A stretch of DNA of 64,000 bases, taken from assembly GCF_036963805.1 (NCBI RefSeq), contig NZ_JBALUN010000009.1, forward strand, positions 314 to 64,313. The letters run 5' to 3'. The notes under the pieces are model-generated. The model made no database searches. It saw only the letters and a program-made list of their open reading frames with translations, and was not told where the DNA came from. The number at the start of each line of letters is the position of its first letter. Position 1 is the first letter of the stretch. Below are positions 37,977 through 48,241 of the stretch, piece by piece. The stretch is from Parasphingorhabdus sp. Its GTDB lineage: Bacteria > Pseudomonadota > Alphaproteobacteria > Sphingomonadales > Sphingomonadaceae. The position numbers and the translations under genes are program-made.

Positions 37977-38063
37977 GGCCTCGGTCAACCTCTTACGATA
38001 GCATAGCCCGCTGTTTCGCTGGCAAAACTACGGTCTTTCTTTTGATGGTCGTTGTGTTTGCGA

Positions 38064-38477
38064 TCAGGACAGTCTGAAGAGCACATCCACTTCTTCATGG
38101 TATTCTCCACCCGGCGCATCCGTGTTGCGCAGTATCTTCGCCTTTGGTCGAAAGCATGATCGGTTCTCCGCGATCCATCAAAGCAAGTCGTCGAGAGGAA
38201 TTCCAACCTCATCGCGCTGTACGCTAGAATAGCAATAAAAATGCAGGCCATCGATATCGATCAGTGCATAAGTTCCGGCGTGATCGCCTTCCTCTACCCG
38301 GATACTATTCTCGATTTCACCAACAGTATCACCGTTCAGATTGACCACTTCCTTGCCTTCAAAATGATTGTCAATTTCCTTAAGGGGAGGCGATTTTGAT
38401 GCCCACATCATCCAGCGCGCTGATGATGCGAATTCCGATATCCCGATGAAAGCGATGCCTTCTAATGTGTTTTTCAC
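38064..38477 (-). pseudogene. Hypothetical gene with a possible in-frame TGA at 38178-38180
   Basis: Reading frame stays open for 37 more codons past the stop (LLxWIAENRSCF...). Confidence 0.35.
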
Positions 38478-38607
38478 TTATAGCAGATTTTGTTGAAGTA
38501 CCCTAGTTCGCGGACTGAATCTCTCGATACGGAGGAGAAAAATCCAAAAAATATTTAGTTTGTATTGATAAATCTGGAACGAATGGGACGTTGCCGAGTA
38601 GTTTGTT

Positions 38608-38712
38608 TAGATGAGGTAGTACCCCCGAATAAATGCCCCATCTGAACTAGAAAGACCGGAAAATTTGCCGCACTCCTGACCTCCCGTCGTGCCTGCAAAT
38701 TTTCCGGTCTAA
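38608..38712 (+). ncRNA. Candidate EcfG-dependent sRNA with C-rich loops
   Basis: GGAAC-N17-GT upstream at 38576-38599; hairpin with ACCCCC loop; perfect 16-bp stem 38653-38668/38695-38710 enclosing GAC-CTCCC-GTC. Confidence 0.6.
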
Positions 38713-38730
38713 ATTTATGAAATTTGCAAT

Positions 38731-38760
38731 AAAAAAGGCCGGGTGCATTGCCCGGCCTTC
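38731..38760. terminator. Intrinsic terminator of the 38781-39008 gene
   Basis: AAGGCCGGG/CCCGGCCTT stem with an A6 tract. Confidence 0.8.
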
Positions 38761-38780
38761 CTGGATGCGGATCTGGAAAA

Positions 38781-39008
38781 CTATTCTTCGGACGGCATCT
38801 CTACGTCAACGTCCGGCACATCAACGGTCACTTCTTTTGTGCCAACTTCAACATCTGCAGTTTCAACATCAACTTCTGGCATCTCGCCAGCATCTGCAGA
38901 AACATCAACATCCATGGACGGCAATTCGCCTTCATCTGTCACTTCGGCTTCACATGCGGTCAGTGCCAGTCCGGCAATCACAGTTGCTGCAATAGAAATC
39001 TTTTTCAT
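38781..39008 (-). CDS. Small acidic lipoprotein
   Basis: LTAC lipobox; D/E/V-rich mature part. Confidence 0.8.
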   Translation of the reverse strand: MKKISIAATVIAGLALTACEAEVTDEGELPSMDVDVSADAGEMPEVDVETADVEVGTKEVTVDVPDVDVEMPSEE

Positions 39009-39039
39009 CTCGAACTCCCTTTCATTGGTTCAAGCGACC

Positions 39040-39064
39040 AACGATAGAAAAGGAGACCGGTTCC
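39040..39064 (-). promoter_or_regulatory. EcfG-type promoter (acidic lipoprotein)
   Basis: GGAAC-N16-CGTT exact. Confidence 0.8.
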
Positions 39065-39076
39065 AATATTTTTCGA

Positions 39077-39814
39077 TTATTCTCTACCCAGTCGCATGCG
39101 GAAAGCGTCGAGGTGAAAATAGCTGGGATCAAATTGGCAGATTTCTGCCAAACGGCTGGCATCACGAAAGACGATCCAGCCTTTTTCTCGATCGAGCAAA
39201 TCATCCTTTTCCAGTTGCCGTAGAACGCGATTGGTGTGGATTGGAGTCAGGCCCAGCGCGTCGGCAATGACAGTCTGTGTCAGCGGCATGCGAAAGCCAT
39301 CGCGCGTGCCTTCGTCGATGATCTGTATCCGCCGGTGGAGTTCGAGAAGGAAATGACCAATCCGCTCGCGCGCGGTTTGCTGTCCATTGCGCACGATCTG
39401 TTCGCGCAGAAATGCCTCTTCCTGAACCTGCATCCACCAGAAAGCCAAAGTCAATTTACCGGATTCGGTCAGTAATCGCCGGAATTCGGAAGGTTCCACC
39501 GACAGGGTCTCCAGTTCGGTTATCGAGAGAACCGAGTGATCAGCTTCGGCTGCAACCAGCACCTGCAAATCGAAAATATCGCCTGGCAGAAGCACGTTCA
39601 ATATCTGCCGGCGTCCGTCTTCCAGGGTTTTATACCGCACGGCCCAGCCTTGTTTGATGACCAGAACGCTATCCATCTGTTGGCCGGCGTCAACGATATC
39701 CAGATTGCGGTCGAAGCGTTTTTCTTTCCCTTCTAAGCCCATAACCCCATCCTGCACCACCTCATCAAGGTCCGCGTAAAATGAGATGCGGCGGAGCAGC
39801 GCCCTTTTGGCCAT
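39077..39814 (-). CDS. Crp/Fnr-family regulator
   Basis: DGRRQILNVLLPGD; ARERIGHFLLEL; PLTQTVIADALGLTPIHTNRVL. Confidence 0.92.
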   Translation of the reverse strand: MAKRALLRRISFYADLDEVVQDGVMGLEGKEKRFDRNLDIVDAGQQMDSVLVIKQGWAVRYKTLEDGRRQILNVLLPGDIFDLQVLVAAEADHSVLSITELETLSVEPSEFRRLLTESGKLTLAFWWMQVQEEAFLREQIVRNGQQTARERIGHFLLELHRRIQIIDEGTRDGFRMPLTQTVIADALGLTPIHTNRVLRQLEKDDLLDREKGWIVFRDASRLAEICQFDPSYFHLDAFRMRLGRE

Positions 39815-41313
39815 TATGTGGTTCCGTTCGGTTTGGGAAATGTCACCGTGCAGACCAAACCGTCCGGCGTCCAGTCCCGTTCAATGCTGCCATGCAAATT
39901 GCGGGTAATGCTGTGGTCGATGAGCGAAGATCCAAAGCCGCTATTAGAAGGAGATTCGGTAATCAATGGACCGCCCTTTTCCAGCCATATCAACTTAACC
40001 ATTTCGGTTTCTTTTCCTGCTTCGACATCCCATTTAATGTCTACCTCACCATCACGCTCTGCCAACGCTCCATATTTCGCCGCATTGGTCGCAAGTTCAT
40101 TTAGCACAAGCGACAGTGACACCATCGCATTCTCGGGAATTGTGAGGTCCGGGCCTGACACACTAACGCGAGGATAAGTCTGTGACAGATCATTGACCAA
40201 CGCCTTGAACGAACCCGTTACGAAATTGGTGTCGAGCAATATCTGCTGCGCCCGGTTCAAGGCGCGCAATCGGCTGGAAATACGTTCCATATAGTCATCA
40301 ATCGAGGTTGCTGATTTCTTGGTCAGCGTCATGATTGACTGCAGCGTAGAAAACAGATTCCGCAGCCGGTGATGCAATTCTCGGGTGTGAAGGCGTAGCT
40401 GGTCTTCCGTCTGAACCGAGTTTGTAACATCCTTGTTCAGACCCGTTAAGGTAGGCCTGCCGTTAACCAGCAAATGATCTCCAAATCCTTCAATCCAGCG
40501 AATTTCCTCCGATGGGAGCACAATACGAAATGTTGCTTCATATTTCTCTCCGAGGTTAGCCGCTGCGCTCATTGCAGTCACTACCGCATCTCGATCATCT
40601 TCGTGAATGCGGGCCATGGCGCTATCCAAATCAGCCAATTTTTCTCCGGCATCTTCACCCCATATCTTCATATATGCCCCGCCCCATTCTATGTGGCCAC
40701 TTTCAAGATCAATTCGAAAACTGCTGGTGTTGCTGAGTGCAAGCGTCAATTCGAGATCGGTTCGATTCTGTGCCGCTTGTCTTTGGGCTTTCTCCCGAAG
40801 CGCCATTTCCCGGCGCAATTCCATCTCGCTGATGACCAGGTCAGAAAAGTCGCGCAAATGTTGGATTTCAGAATCGGTGGGTCTGGCTCGCGGTTCAGTG
40901 TCTCCAATCCAGAATGAGCCCAGCACCATCCCATCGGGAGCAATGAGCGGTGCACCCGCATAGAAGCGGATATAGGGCTCACCAATCACCAACGGGTTGT
41001 CGCGAAAACCGGATTTGGCTGTGTCTTCAACGACCAACGGTTCCTGACCATCCACTACATGTGAACAAAAGGAAATGTCTCTTGCGGTGGATTCGGATTT
41101 GATGCCCACTGCCGACTTGAACCATTGCCGGTCGGCATCAACGAATGAGATGGATGCCATTGGTGCTTTGAAAATATCGGCGCAAAGCCTCGTGATTCGG
41201 TCAAATGCGACTTCTGGGGCGCTGTCCATAATGTTGTAATGCCGAAGTGTTTTCAGTCGCTCTTCTTCGATAACTGAAGATCGCTTTGGTTTAGCTTGCT
41301 GACCAGAATGCAT
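39814..41313 (-). CDS. GAF-PAS HWE/HisKA_2 sensor histidine kinase
   Basis: GAF IRFYAGAPL; ELHHRLRNLF; NELATNAAKYGAL; WLEKGGP. Confidence 0.92.
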   Translation of the reverse strand: MHSGQQAKPKRSSVIEEERLKTLRHYNIMDSAPEVAFDRITRLCADIFKAPMASISFVDADRQWFKSAVGIKSESTARDISFCSHVVDGQEPLVVEDTAKSGFRDNPLVIGEPYIRFYAGAPLIAPDGMVLGSFWIGDTEPRARPTDSEIQHLRDFSDLVISEMELRREMALREKAQRQAAQNRTDLELTLALSNTSSFRIDLESGHIEWGGAYMKIWGEDAGEKLADLDSAMARIHEDDRDAVVTAMSAAANLGEKYEATFRIVLPSEEIRWIEGFGDHLLVNGRPTLTGLNKDVTNSVQTEDQLRLHTRELHHRLRNLFSTLQSIMTLTKKSATSIDDYMERISSRLRALNRAQQILLDTNFVTGSFKALVNDLSQTYPRVSVSGPDLTIPENAMVSLSLVLNELATNAAKYGALAERDGEVDIKWDVEAGKETEMVKLIWLEKGGPLITESPSNSGFGSSLIDHSITRNLHGSIERDWTPDGLVCTVTFPKPNGTT

Positions 41314-41410
41314 AATTTACCTTTTAATCGCCAATTGTCCGCTACGCCAAGCCTAATTTCTCTGGCGTCCTTATCCTAACTGCGAACCAGCAGATTTGTT
41401 GCAATTTTTC

Positions 41411-41435
41411 GGAACAAACAAGGCTTCGGTGCGTT
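41411..41435 (+). promoter_or_regulatory. EcfG-type promoter (general stress protein)
   Basis: GGAAC-N16-CGTT exact. Confidence 0.8.
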
Positions 41436-41480
41436 CTTTTGAATGAACCCCGAGTGAAAATGAACAACAAGGAGTCCGCA

Positions 41481-41966
41481 ATGACCCAAGAGAATCTCGA
41501 AGAACTTTATGACATGATTGACGATGTCGGAACCGCCATGCTGGTGACGGAGAATAACGCTGAATTGCGAAGCCGTCCGATGACCGGCAAATTGCATCGT
41601 GATACTGGCGAAATCTGGTTCCTGACCGAAACCGCATCTGAAAAGATACGGGAAATTTCAAAAGATGGCACGGCCAACCTGACCTATGCTTGTCCGGAAA
41701 AGGAGACATATATCTCGATTTCCGGCAGCGCGAAAACGATCCGCAATCAAGATAAGATTGATGACCTATGGGGACCATGGGCCGAAGCATGGCTGCAATG
41801 CGAGAAGGATGACCAAAAAGTTTCTGCTATTTGCTTTAAACCGGAAATAGCGGAATATTGGTCATCGCCATCTTCTACAATAGTCCAAAGCTGGGAACTG
41901 GCCAAAGCCAAGATCACCGACGAAAAGCCCGATCTGGGTGAAAACAAAACTGTGAAAATAGCTTAA
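41481..41966 (+). CDS. General stress protein, pyridoxamine-oxidase-like FMN-binding fold
   Basis: AMLVT...LRSRPM...IWFLT...SEK...AEYWSSP. Confidence 0.85.
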   Translation: MTQENLEELYDMIDDVGTAMLVTENNAELRSRPMTGKLHRDTGEIWFLTETASEKIREISKDGTANLTYACPEKETYISISGSAKTIRNQDKIDDLWGPWAEAWLQCEKDDQKVSAICFKPEIAEYWSSPSSTIVQSWELAKAKITDEKPDLGENKTVKIA

Positions 41967-41984
41967 AATCATTTCACAAGCATA

Positions 41985-42015
41985 CAAAAAAGCGGGGTTT
42001 CAGCCCCGCTTTTTA
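41985..42015. terminator. Bidirectional intrinsic terminator
   Basis: AAAAAAGCGGGG-loop-CCCCGCTTTTT. Confidence 0.85.
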
Positions 42016-42041
42016 ATTGCCTATATAATTTAAATTGCGAT

Positions 42042-42332
42042 CTATCTGCGAGCGAGCAGGGCGCCGACGATCAAGCCTACACCTGCCGTCACCAGCAATG
42101 TGCTCATTGGATTTTCTCGAACCGCCTCGCGCGCTTTTGCCTTTCCTTTGGAGCCAGCATCGAAAGCATTAGATCTCGCTTCTCCAGCTTTCTGTTTTGC
42201 TGTTGCACGGAGCTCTGCAGCGTTTTCCTTGGCGTCAGCAGTGACAGATTTCACCAGATTGGAAAAATCCTGCTTCAACGAGTTCATATCTTTCTTTACG
42301 GCTCCTAATTCTTCGGAATAATTGCCGGACAT
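42042..42332 (-). CDS. DUF883/ElaB-YqjD family protein
   Basis: VRENPMSTLLVTAGVGLIVGALLARR. Confidence 0.88.
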   Translation of the reverse strand: MSGNYSEELGAVKKDMNSLKQDFSNLVKSVTADAKENAAELRATAKQKAGEARSNAFDAGSKGKAKAREAVRENPMSTLLVTAGVGLIVGALLARR

Positions 42333-42364
42333 TGTTTTCTCCTTTTTTGATTGCATATAGCTTC

Positions 42365-42389
42365 AACGAGCAATGGGTTTAATCGTTCC
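42365..42389 (-). promoter_or_regulatory. EcfG-type promoter (DUF883 gene)
   Basis: GGAAC-N16-CGTT exact. Confidence 0.8.
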
Positions 42390-42482
42390 CAAAAGACGCG
42401 AATTTGGTGAAAAATAATCGACTCTTCCCTTGCAACCCTTTTTGTTTTGATGCGTATGCTTCCCATCACGGAGTAAATTTGA

Positions 42483-43259
42483 ATGTCCCTAGCCGAAACC
42501 CTTCGCCCGCAATTGCCTTATCTGCGCCGCTATGCGCGCGCGCTAACCGGAAATCAAAAAAGCGGGGATTCCTATGTGAAAGCAACATTGGAAGCCATTA
42601 TCGCCGAACCGGATTCAATCGATACCAGTGGCGATATTCGCGTGCAGATTTACAAAATTTTCGGACGTATCTGGGAAAGCTCAAATGCGTATTCTGAAGT
42701 TGATGACGCCGGTAGTGGCGACGATCAGCTGACGACCATCCCTCCGATCAGCCGCCAAATCCTCTTGCTCACCGCGCTGGAAGGATTCTCTCTTTTCGAT
42801 GTCGCCGACATCGCCAATATTGGGGAAAATTCAATTAATGGATTGATGGAAGAAGCGATTGCCGAGATTGATCGCGAAATGCGCACCGATGTCCTTATCA
42901 TCGAGGATGAAGCGCTCATTACTATGGAGTTGGAGCAGATCGTTACTGAGCTTGGACATAATGTCTGCGGCACAGCAACTACGCACAAAGCTGCGCTAGC
43001 GGCGGTGGATAAAGCAAAACCCGGATTGGTGCTCGCCGATATTCAACTTGCCGACGGAAGCTCGGGCATTGATGCCGTTAAAGATATATTGGATCAGTTT
43101 TCAGTTCCGGTCATTTTCGTAACCGCTTTCCCGGAGCGATTGCTAACGGGCGAGAGGCCGGAACCAACTTTCCTAATCACCAAGCCTTTTCAATCAAATG
43201 CAATTCGCGCAGCCATCAGCCAAGCGCTATTCTTCTCCCAACAGACGGAAGCCGCATAA
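42483..43259 (+). CDS. phyR: Anti-anti-sigma response regulator PhyR
   Basis: Sigma-like N-terminus LPYLRRYARALTG; receiver LIIEDE, LADIQLADGSSG, LITKPF. Confidence 0.95.
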   Translation: MSLAETLRPQLPYLRRYARALTGNQKSGDSYVKATLEAIIAEPDSIDTSGDIRVQIYKIFGRIWESSNAYSEVDDAGSGDDQLTTIPPISRQILLLTALEGFSLFDVADIANIGENSINGLMEEAIAEIDREMRTDVLIIEDEALITMELEQIVTELGHNVCGTATTHKAALAAVDKAKPGLVLADIQLADGSSGIDAVKDILDQFSVPVIFVTAFPERLLTGERPEPTFLITKPFQSNAIRAAISQALFFSQQTEAA

Positions 43260-43267
43260 TCGAGATT

Positions 43268-43867
43268 TCAGGGCACTTCCGAGACGATTTCATCAACTGC
43301 GCCGATGATATTTTCCAAAGCGGTTTCCGTGGGATTTATTTCACCTTCGGACGCTGCAGTGAAACGGCCATTTTTCAAAATGCCTGCAAGCGTTTTTCGG
43401 GCACGTGAAACACGGCTTTTCATCGTTCCGATAGCGCAGCCAGCAATCTCTGCGGCCTCTTCGTAAGCATATCCGCCAGCGCCGACCAAAATAATTGCTT
43501 CGCGCTGATCATCAGAAAGTTCCATCAACCCACGCTGCAAATCGGCAAGGTGGAGCGGGTCCTGCTGCGGAGCAGGCGCAGATAATATCCGTTCGGCCAC
43601 AATCTCATCATAGTTGGCGGTAAACTTCTTCCGCCGCATATTGGAAAAATAGGTATTGCGCAGGATGACAAAGGTCCAGGCCCGCATCGAAGTACCTGCC
43701 TTGAACCGCTCGCGCGCCGCCCATGCTTTGAGCAAAGTGTCTTGCACGAGATCATCTGCCAGATCGGCGTTGCCGGACAGGCTGCGGCCAAATGCACGCA
43801 GGTGCGGGATGGTCTCTGCCAGTTCCTTCTTGAAATCTGCAGCGCTGAGTTGCTTGTGATCACTCAT
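43268..43867 (-). CDS. ecfG: ECF sigma factor EcfG/SigT
   Basis: LRAFGRSL, DLVQDTLLKAW, AWTFVILRN, GTMKSRVSRAR. Confidence 0.92.
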   Translation of the reverse strand: MSDHKQLSAADFKKELAETIPHLRAFGRSLSGNADLADDLVQDTLLKAWAARERFKAGTSMRAWTFVILRNTYFSNMRRKKFTANYDEIVAERILSAPAPQQDPLHLADLQRGLMELSDDQREAIILVGAGGYAYEEAAEIAGCAIGTMKSRVSRARKTLAGILKNGRFTAASEGEINPTETALENIIGAVDEIVSEVP

Positions 43868-46913: not shown

Positions 46914-47044
46914 CAAACTATAACCACATTGTGGGTGATCTACCTGGATCACAAACTTAGCCCCGGCAGCCTCGCTGTCGGGGTTTTTTATGATGATATC
47001 AGATACGGAACGGAACCAATATCTGGTTCCAGCGTATGTCGAGA

Positions 47045-47926
47045 ATGGAAAACTCGGTAGACACATCACTAAACACGCTCGAAATCCTGATTGAGCAGCT
47101 CAAATCCATGTGGGAGGGGCTGGTCCAGCTAATGCCCAGCCTTGTCATTGCGATCCTGTTCCTGATTGTGACCTGGATCATCGCCCGATTTGCGAGCAAA
47201 ATCGCAGATCGCATCACTGCCAAGACCAATATGCGGCCCTCTCTCCAGGAATTGATCGACACTCTCGTCCGGATCAGTATCTGGACGGTTGGCTTGTTGG
47301 TCTCATTGACGATATTGCTTCCGGGATTGACGCCGGGCAGTCTTGTTGCCGGGCTTGGTATCGGTACCGTCGCTATCGGTTTCGCGTTCCAGGATATTTT
47401 CGAGAATTTCCTCGCCGGAATTCTGATTATGTTGCGCGAAAAGATGCGCATCGGTGATTATATTAAATGTGACGATATTGAAGGTAGGGTTGAAAAGATA
47501 CTGCTGCGCGAAACGCATGTTCGCAAGCTATCCAATGAATTGAACATCGTGCCGAATTCCATCCTTTTTAAAAATCCGGTTGAGATACTCACTGATAAGG
47601 ACCAGCGTCGCCACGATGTCGTTGTCGGCGTGTCCTATGATACCGATCTGGAAAACGCGCAGGCAGTCATCAGAAAAGCCGTTGAGGAAACCGAAGTCGT
47701 GGACACGAACAGAACGATTGATGTTTTCGCCTGCGAGTTCAATTCAAGTTCGGTGGACTACAAGGTCAGGTGGTGGTCCGGATCCGGGCAGCGCGAGATG
47801 CATGACAGCCGCGATCAGGTGGTCCGCAACATCAAGCGAGCGCTTGACGATGCAGGCATTGAAATTCCGTTCCCGTACATCACGCATACTTTCAAGGAGA
47901 AGATCCCACTCGCTTCCAATGATTGA
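47045..47926 (+). CDS. MscS-family mechanosensitive channel
   Basis: GFAFQDIFENFLAGILI; GIEIPFP; GGAAC-N16-CGTA at 47012-47036. Confidence 0.92.
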   Translation: MENSVDTSLNTLEILIEQLKSMWEGLVQLMPSLVIAILFLIVTWIIARFASKIADRITAKTNMRPSLQELIDTLVRISIWTVGLLVSLTILLPGLTPGSLVAGLGIGTVAIGFAFQDIFENFLAGILIMLREKMRIGDYIKCDDIEGRVEKILLRETHVRKLSNELNIVPNSILFKNPVEILTDKDQRRHDVVVGVSYDTDLENAQAVIRKAVEETEVVDTNRTIDVFACEFNSSSVDYKVRWWSGSGQREMHDSRDQVVRNIKRALDDAGIEIPFPYITHTFKEKIPLASND

Positions 47927-48158: not shown

Positions 48159-48241
48159 GATAGCATCTCCTTGGTTATGCCTGATCAACGCCGCACGTTT
48201 GATTTCGTTGCATCAAGCGTGCGGCGGTGTTGTTTAAGGTA

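Follow-up and report, generated by a model that had tools for sequence, protein, structure and literature searches.

We found that an element at 38576-38726 on the + strand of the 64,000-nucleotide stretch of Parasphingorhabdus DNA analysed here (hereafter, the window) is rather likely to be a strongly diverged copy from a family of EcfG-type small RNAs (sRNAs) that had not been described before and that would act in the manner of GsrN and ReC64. A sequence-only reading of the window had proposed, at this place, a stress sRNA with C-rich loops that was likened to the alpha-r14 family. Of this proposal, a non-coding gene with two hairpins could be upheld, with homologs in at least 28 species that carry an EcfG-type promoter, but the assignment to alpha-r14 could not. 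Below, we describe the element and its surroundings, the family as it occurs in relatives of the same genus, the relation of the window copy to that family, and the alternatives that have to be weighed.

Results

Two hairpins with C-rich loops in a stretch free of ORFs

In the MFE fold, the + strand of the 38605-38712 region forms two strong hairpins, at 38605-38647 and 38653-38710. Hairpin 1 (38605-38647, +), which aligns to the first hairpin of both covariance models described below (R1 and R2), is made up, in order, of GUUUAGAUG-A-GGUA, the loop GUACCCCCGAAUAAA and UGCC-C-CAUCUGAAC. It has 13 pairs, with one single-base bulge in each arm, and its C-rich loop (38619-38633) is exposed at the tip of the 5' hairpin in the predicted fold. 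The linker UAGAA (38648-38652, +) leads to hairpin 2 (38653-38710, +), a perfect 16-bp stem whose two 16-nt arms (38653-38668 and 38695-38710) are 100% complementary and lie 26 nt apart. Between them is the apex CGCACUCCUGACCUCCCGUCGUGCCU (38669-38694), which carries CUCCU and CCUCCC and includes an inner hairpin, GAC-CUCCC-GUC. The two hairpins, the perfect 16-bp stem and the inner hairpin had all been pointed out from sequence before, and both direct reading of the letters and folding agree with that description. The tail AAAUUUAUGAAAUUUG (38711-38726, +), with weak U-tracts, stands where relatives have ACYUUUY after hairpin 2, and is probably the region of the RNA 3' end. Over 38590-38775 (+), a stretch that takes in the terminator of the neighbouring gene, the fold reached -71.6 kcal/mol (z = -7.9), a stability equalled by none of 200 shuffles, and the antisense and sense folds were about equally stable.

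The + strand has no ORF of at least 30 aa that overlaps 38576-38712, in line with the earlier claim of an ORF-free stretch after GGAAC; the − strand of the same segment has only mechanical ORFs of 47 and 33 aa, and a co-directional ORF downstream of the element is absent. The stem of hairpin 2 is A/U-rich, and the tails beyond it are AAAUUUA on the + strand and UUUCU on the − strand. We rejected the possibility that the element is an intrinsic terminator only, given its 16-bp A/U-rich stem, its 26-nt apex and a consensus terminator scan that called nothing in 38100-39100.

By DNA search, the element is single-copy in the 3.9-Mb genome. Scanned against Rfam, the whole window yielded a tRNA only at the gathering score, and 38450-38800 at E up to 10 yielded only noise on the neighbouring terminator; for neither the window element nor the loci of seven relatives did any Rfam family reach E = 0.01, the latter giving nothing. 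Hence, the Rfam/Infernal check for a known family returned no match to the element.

The element lies inside a general-stress-response locus

The element is flanked on both sides by − strand features. The first, a 99-aa PRC-barrel ORF (38477..38178, −), is a pseudogene remnant: its similarity to a 283-aa signal-peptide/EF-hand/PRC-barrel protein of a relative (G005) is confined to residues 182-282 of the latter, the match (38060-38477, −) crosses an in-frame stop that comes after ...IPLDDLL, the remnant lacks the N-terminal 180 residues, and it is not syntenic in relatives. That 38478-38780 might be what is left of the PRC-barrel N-terminus was examined by tblastn with the 283-aa protein and discarded, with no match before residue 182.

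The second flanking feature, convergent to the element, is a gene for a 75-aa acidic lipoprotein (39008..38781, −), which we used as the synteny anchor. It is preceded by an exact match to an EcfG-type promoter, GGAACC-N16-CGTT (39064..39040, −), and its product has a lipobox, LTAC, and repeated D/E-V motifs, with no Pfam match; it is shared by 15 of 24 congeners, with 71-82% identity, and its own genome encodes it twice. The intrinsic terminator of this gene (38731-38757, −; GGCCGGG-loop-CCCGGCC plus U6, stem at 38737-38757) bounds the sRNA and is no part of it, and a homologous hairpin with a T-run follows the 75-aa gene in all the relatives aligned. Beyond the lipoprotein gene lie genes for a Crp-family regulator and a GAF-PAS-HWE kinase and a PNPOx-like gene, followed by phyR (42483-43259) at 3.8 kb and ecfG (43268-43867) at 4.6 kb from the element; further genes of the locus are BLUF, MscS, DUF2383 and hemerythrin genes. 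Exact GGAAC-N16-CGTT sites number eight in the window, all between 34.5 and 49.2 kb, against 1.65 expected, and with a spacer of 16 or 17 nt (GGAAC-N16/17-CGTT) the whole genome has 75, eight of them in the window. Because of this gene content and the cluster of EcfG-type sites, we place the element inside a general-stress-response (GSR) locus.

A covarying RNA family at the same position in Parasphingorhabdus relatives

Regions downstream of the 75-aa lipoprotein gene were aligned for nine congeners. Seven of these share a conserved non-coding block of ~190 nt after the terminator of the gene. Read opposite to the lipoprotein strand, that is, in the + sense of the window, the block begins with an A-tract and G[G/C]AACCAAT-N12-nGTT (equivalent to GGAAC-N16-nGTT) and continues with a first hairpin, GAAUGGA.../...UUUCAUUC, single-stranded CCUCAAAAACC, and a long hairpin, GGCUGGGAAAUUUG.../...CAAAUUUCCCAGCC, with the apex CGUAU-CCCCCC-GUUUACC and the tail ACYUUUY. 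We built covariance model R1 from seven sequences and R2 from 26, with the window sequence in neither. In searches with R1, 26 of 61 genus genomes had one copy each (44-153 bits), and canonical copies score 77-142 bits with R2. The conserved element spans ~125 nt at the syntenic position convergent to the 75-aa lipoprotein gene; in the eight relatives checked it lies 3.5-4.5 kb from the only phyR and belongs to the core stress locus. The A-tract, the -35 element and, at identical spacing from it, the GTT of the -10 element are present in all 26 canonical copies.

Covariation in homologs, to which the sequence-only reading had looked for support, is evident in these 26 sequences, where 14 of 33 pairs have changes on both sides, compared to 5.5 +/- 1.6 in shuffles (0 of 500 reach 14). 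Moreover, 91.2% of the cells form standard pairs, as against 28-55% when the partners are slid by one to three columns. The count of 73 G-U cells as against 7 A-C cells speaks for the promoter-sense strand, although this figure is biased toward that strand by the derivation of the structure on it. A small ORF in the RNA (ATGGATGTCGACC...TGA, five codons) was considered and dropped, being broken by indels in several species and having no ribosome-binding site.

The family extends to more divergent members. The copy in G441 scores 43.6 bits with R1 and 77.2 with R2 and is intermediate between the window and canonical copies: it shares GGAACGAAT (at the -35 element), AGATGA-GT and CCCGAAT with the window, and its neighbours are in the same kinase-Crp-lipoprotein order, with a GGCCGG-type terminator. 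A laxer search of genomes that were negative in the standard search revealed two diverged variants. One (L092; G439:C18:15824-15946; 27 bits) has GCAAC-N16-AGTT and the stem GCCGGGAAAUUUGAC and is without the linker altogether. The other (L093; G459:C1:1561250-1561391; 22 bits) has GGAAC-N16-TGTT and lies 5 kb from phyR, with the loops GCCUCCCC and AACCCCAAUCCUC, three hairpins and a clean U6 terminator. Since both were found among standard-search negatives, the family is wider than 26 of 61 genomes. Constant across the variants are the promoter type, the two-hairpin plan, a G-C-Y-GGRAAAUU outer stem and a C-rich apical CCYCCCG. With R2, searches at the level of the family and in Sphingopyxis found nothing outside the genus, which is weak evidence of absence because the same pipelines also missed the window copy; as far as sampled, the RNA family appears restricted to Parasphingorhabdus.

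Two further observations concern these relatives. Read on the lipoprotein strand, the long hairpin of the sRNA is followed by GGUUUUUGAGG, for example in L018 (G016), and the long hairpin could serve as a bidirectional terminator that also stops lipoprotein read-through. Beyond the sRNA promoter, G001, G013 and G004 have a conserved ATGCAACCAAC-N-GCGTC ahead of a hemerythrin-like ORF (MTDIFTRLKQDH...); the ATGCAACCAAC motif resembles the GCAAC variant of the EcfG -35 element, as does window 48187-48211 before the hemerythrin gene.

The window copy is a diverged match to the family models

R1 matched the window at 38596-38725 (+) over model positions 1-132, the full length, with 22 bits (E = 1.8e-4), the best match among the 128 kb searched (− strand, 13.8 bits). 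R2 matched it at 38600-38721 (+) with 28.3 bits (E = 9e-5 in 117 kb; − strand, 19.8 bits), again the top match within the window. Extrapolated to the whole genome, these E-values correspond to only ~1e-2 to 1e-3, and the scores of 22-28 bits are far under the canonical 44-153 (R1) and 77-142 (R2), the window copy not being recovered by whole-genome covariance-model pipelines. Nonetheless, the match falls exactly where synteny would place it, facing the lipoprotein gene in convergent orientation, on the downstream side of HWE kinase-Crp and less than ~5 kb from phyR, and it begins directly after the putative -10 element, as in relatives. Of the family promoter, the window copy has the -35 element and the 16-nt spacing; its -10 reads AGTA, compared to nGTT in 28 relatives.

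The stems agree with the family in pairing despite changed letters. Hairpin 2 keeps 12 of 12 aligned outer pairs of the genus consensus, GGCUGGGAAAUU/AAUUUCCCAGCC, three of them with double changes (G-C to A-U, U-A to C-G, and G-C to A-U), and hairpin 1 keeps six of seven aligned pairs, three via changes on both sides. At the apex, the window has ACCUCCCG and G439 has CCCUCCCG, with CCUCCCG common to both, where canonical copies have CCCCCCG. The linker is UAGAA in place of the relatives' CCUCAAAAACC, and its CCUC, kept in seven of seven sequences of the first alignment and in most of the 26 relatives, is missing.

At the DNA level, the window variant found no match in 40 relatives, in all 63 genus genomes or in 400 genomes of the order. 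Likewise, its exact two-arm pattern had no match in public genome and metagenome contig collections, and plasmids gave no DNA-level match. Matches of ~20 nt among the 400 order genomes, for example one inside thyA, were set aside as chance.

Promoter of the window copy and the possibility of decay

Upstream of the element, an A-rich tract, AAAATCCAAAAAATATT (38549-38565, +), may be an UP-like element; in relatives the corresponding A-run (consensus AAAAAAAATT) lies ~10-20 nt upstream of GGAAC, and the window tract is ~10 nt further off. The EcfG-type -35 element GGAAC (38576-38580, +) aligns with the invariant G[G/C]AAC of 26 relatives. After an exact 16-nt spacer follows the putative -10 element AGTA (38597-38600, +), at the place of the relatives' consensus nGTT. 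The EcfG -10 consensus is CGTT, of which AGTA matches the G and the T and differs in the first and last bases; the last-base change, T to A, affects the GTT that is kept in the 26 canonical relatives as well as in G439 and G459. The earlier proposal had drawn on GGAAC at 38576 with GT at the -10 position, and both are read directly, but they are not significant by themselves. GGAAC occurs 7631 times genome-wide and GTA at the same offset is uninformative at that scale; a whole-genome comparison of GTA against GTT after GGAAC-N17 was swamped by coding sequence and was abandoned as equally uninformative. The promoter match of the window copy alone is not beyond chance; it counts for more than chance because it is in register with an RNA body homologous to that of relatives.

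Since its -10 reads GTA instead of GTT, expression of the window copy is uncertain: we regard it as about evenly balanced, and the copy may be weakly expressed or silent. Only one other GGAAC-N16-nGTA occurs in the locus, with CGTA, at 47012-47036. This GGAACC-N16-CGTA (+) runs into the ATG of the ORF for an MscS-type channel (47036-47926), and would give a leaderless transcript, go with a different start codon, or be non-functional.

It is possible, if on the unlikely side, that the copy in the window is a relic of the family sRNA, already dead or decaying, whose promoter has been inactivated by the GTT to GTA change, which yields no functional RNA any more and whose hairpins have not yet been eroded. 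Whereas neither stem has broken down (hairpin 2 has all of its 16 pairs and hairpin 1 has 13), the six compensating changes would not be expected under neutral decay over the time needed for such divergence, and the C-rich motifs CCCCC and CCUCCC are retained, the T to A change affects a -10 position kept in 28 relatives, the CCUC of the linker is lost, the model score is very low, the adjoining gene is a pseudogene relic, which points to local decay, and the locus is a redundant second stress locus.

A second, probably acquired stress locus

The genome has two GSR loci, that of the window (contig C9; compared over window 38781-43867) and one at C11:6314-9827. Between them, identity is 73% for PhyR, 78% for EcfG, 59% for the kinase and 69% for the lipoprotein. 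The C11 locus is arranged lipoprotein-kinase-phyR-ecfG, with neither Crp nor, beyond the lipoprotein gene, an sRNA. In the congeners checked there is one locus, with a single phyR. The window PhyR is ~73-75% identical to the PhyR of all congeners checked, and the window Crp has at most 80% identity to any Crp in the species collection. These figures fit an extra copy of the locus acquired from an unsampled lineage, so that the window stress locus was probably acquired horizontally; acquisition from such a lineage would explain the strong divergence of the sRNA without decay. As to the earlier suggestion that the sRNA is island-encoded, the copy lies in a second, extra GSR locus of its own genome (C9 as against C11).

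The Crp closest to that of the window (80%) is encoded in CANMVC010000002.1 (L063), where the sRNA is absent and a 377-aa ORF converges directly on the lipoprotein terminator, in the place that the sRNA would have.

A more far-reaching version of island origin is improbable, in our estimation: that a mobile element carries a portable GSR module made up of phyR, nepR-ecfG, the kinase, regulon genes and a dedicated sRNA, that the sRNA co-diverged with the island's sigma factor, and that GTA marks a change of specificity separating island from host EcfG. If this were true, promoter and RNA would constitute an insulated post-transcriptional circuit beside the chromosomal stress response.

Strand and nature of the element

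It is also conceivable that the − strand is the functional one, the long hairpin being a second or bidirectional terminator or a 3'-UTR structure of the lipoprotein transcript, or else a leader of the PRC-barrel gene, with no sRNA at all. Both flanking features are on that strand, hairpin 2 of relatives is followed there by the terminator-like GGUUUUUGAGG, and the antisense folds as stably and has weak model matches (13.8-19.8 bits). We nevertheless hold this to be very improbable, since a canonical terminator with U6-U7, that of the lipoprotein gene, already stands directly upstream, the invariant G[G/C]AAC-N16-nGTT points in the opposite direction, the 73 to 7 count of G-U against A-C cells speaks for the + sense, and the conservation of hairpin 1 and the loops exceeds the needs of a terminator. 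In addition, the PRC-barrel 'gene' is a truncated pseudogene that is not syntenic in relatives, and the − strand tail in the window is merely UUUCU.

Least credible of all is that the 16-bp inverted repeat acts at the DNA level, as a protein-binding palindrome, a recombination site or what is left of a miniature mobile element. Perfect repeats of 16 bp are unusual and a pseudogene adjoins this one, but it occurs once in the genome, plasmids, metagenomes and genome collections contain no match to it, the 26-nt spacing of its arms is unlike usual operator geometry, and the homologous stem of relatives covaries as RNA.

Discussion

A working model for the sRNA family

Under the preferred reading, of the window element as a diverged EcfG-type sRNA, the family gene sits at the edge of the GSR locus (phyR / nepR-ecfG ... 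HWE kinase - Crp - 75-aa lipoprotein) and converges on the lipoprotein gene. Under stress, RNA polymerase with EcfG would transcribe it from G[G/C]AAC-N16-nGTT into an RNA of ~105-125 nt, with a 5' hairpin and a long 3' hairpin whose apex is C-rich (CCYCCCG). The exposed C-rich loops may then base-pair to target mRNAs, at leaders that are G-rich or Shine-Dalgarno-like, and alter the translation or stability of these mRNAs, as GsrN of Caulobacter does. The window copy, in its extra GSR locus, has retained both hairpins and the C-rich loops; if it is expressed, its transcription in this strain would be EcfG-dependent and it would reach its targets through the same base-pairing mode. An attempt with RNAduplex on 3698 crude translation-initiation regions, which ignores intramolecular structure, produced meaningless long duplexes, and we claim no targets.

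EcfG-dependent sRNAs are the least explored layer of the alphaproteobacterial GSR, with GsrN and ReC64 as the worked examples; both are precedents for such RNAs with C-rich loops beside the stress locus. To these can be added a new covarying, promoter-anchored sRNA family in a genus of Sphingomonadaceae, found in at least 28 of ~64 species and provided with usable covariance models and with candidates for the seed that stand out clearly. The family combines fast sequence divergence with a kept architecture, and BLAST-based surveys miss such RNAs for that reason. It is suited to deletion, pull-down and comparative target prediction, and the window copy offers a natural experiment, in which an extra stress locus carries an sRNA with a -10 variant.

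Comparison with known sRNAs

The alpha-r14/cuckoo RNAs are Rfam families of Rhizobiales that have CCUCCUCCC loops and occur in multiple copies. The element resembles them in its anti-Shine-Dalgarno-like C/U-rich loops (CUCCU and CCUCCC in the window) and differs in being single-copy per genome and in its promoter type. Membership, as proposed from the sequence alone, was rejected: no such family appeared at E up to 10 on 38450-38800, and the element occurs only once in the 3.9-Mb genome, as it does in each of the relatives that have it.

Within the same family, Sphingomonadaceae, the sRNA SuhB of Sphingopyxis granuli TFA is needed for stress resistance; its activator is a LysR-type regulator, and most of its regulon does not depend on EcfG (bioRxiv 10.64898/2025.12.09.693200). 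The element shares the bacterial family with SuhB but not the LysR-driven expression, and the Rfam scans, which covered all families, gave no match here.

In Caulobacter crescentus, GsrN is a sigmaT/EcfG-dependent sRNA of ~100 nt that pairs with G-rich leaders of mRNAs through a C-rich loop exposed on its 5' hairpin, and its homologs usually adjoin the ecfG-nepR-phyR locus (Tien et al., 2018; PMC5869019). BLASTn matches to GsrN were obtained only within Caulobacteraceae, and the survey found no gsrN-like gene in Erythrobacter litoralis, its representative of Sphingomonadales (PMC5869019). By the criteria of that study (PMC5869019), as distinct from sequence, the element is like GsrN in its position and its C-rich loops. 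As to the third criterion, the promoter, relatives have the near-consensus EcfG site in full, whereas the window reads GGAAC-N16-AGTA. The two also differ in that the strongest conserved C-rich motif here occupies both the 5' loop and the apex of the 3' hairpin; isoform processing and katG targeting are described for GsrN.

ReC64 of Rhizobium etli, an EcfG1-dependent, trans-encoded ncRNA of 88 nt, is the only down-regulated ncRNA preceded by GGAAC-N16-CGTT and lies downstream of a kinase gene in the ecfG-phyR region, with proof by Northern, 5' RACE and promoter fusion (Jans et al., 2013; PMC3892343). It belongs to another order (Rhizobiales). Likened by position and by promoter motif, ReC64 is the closest positional analogue of the element described here.
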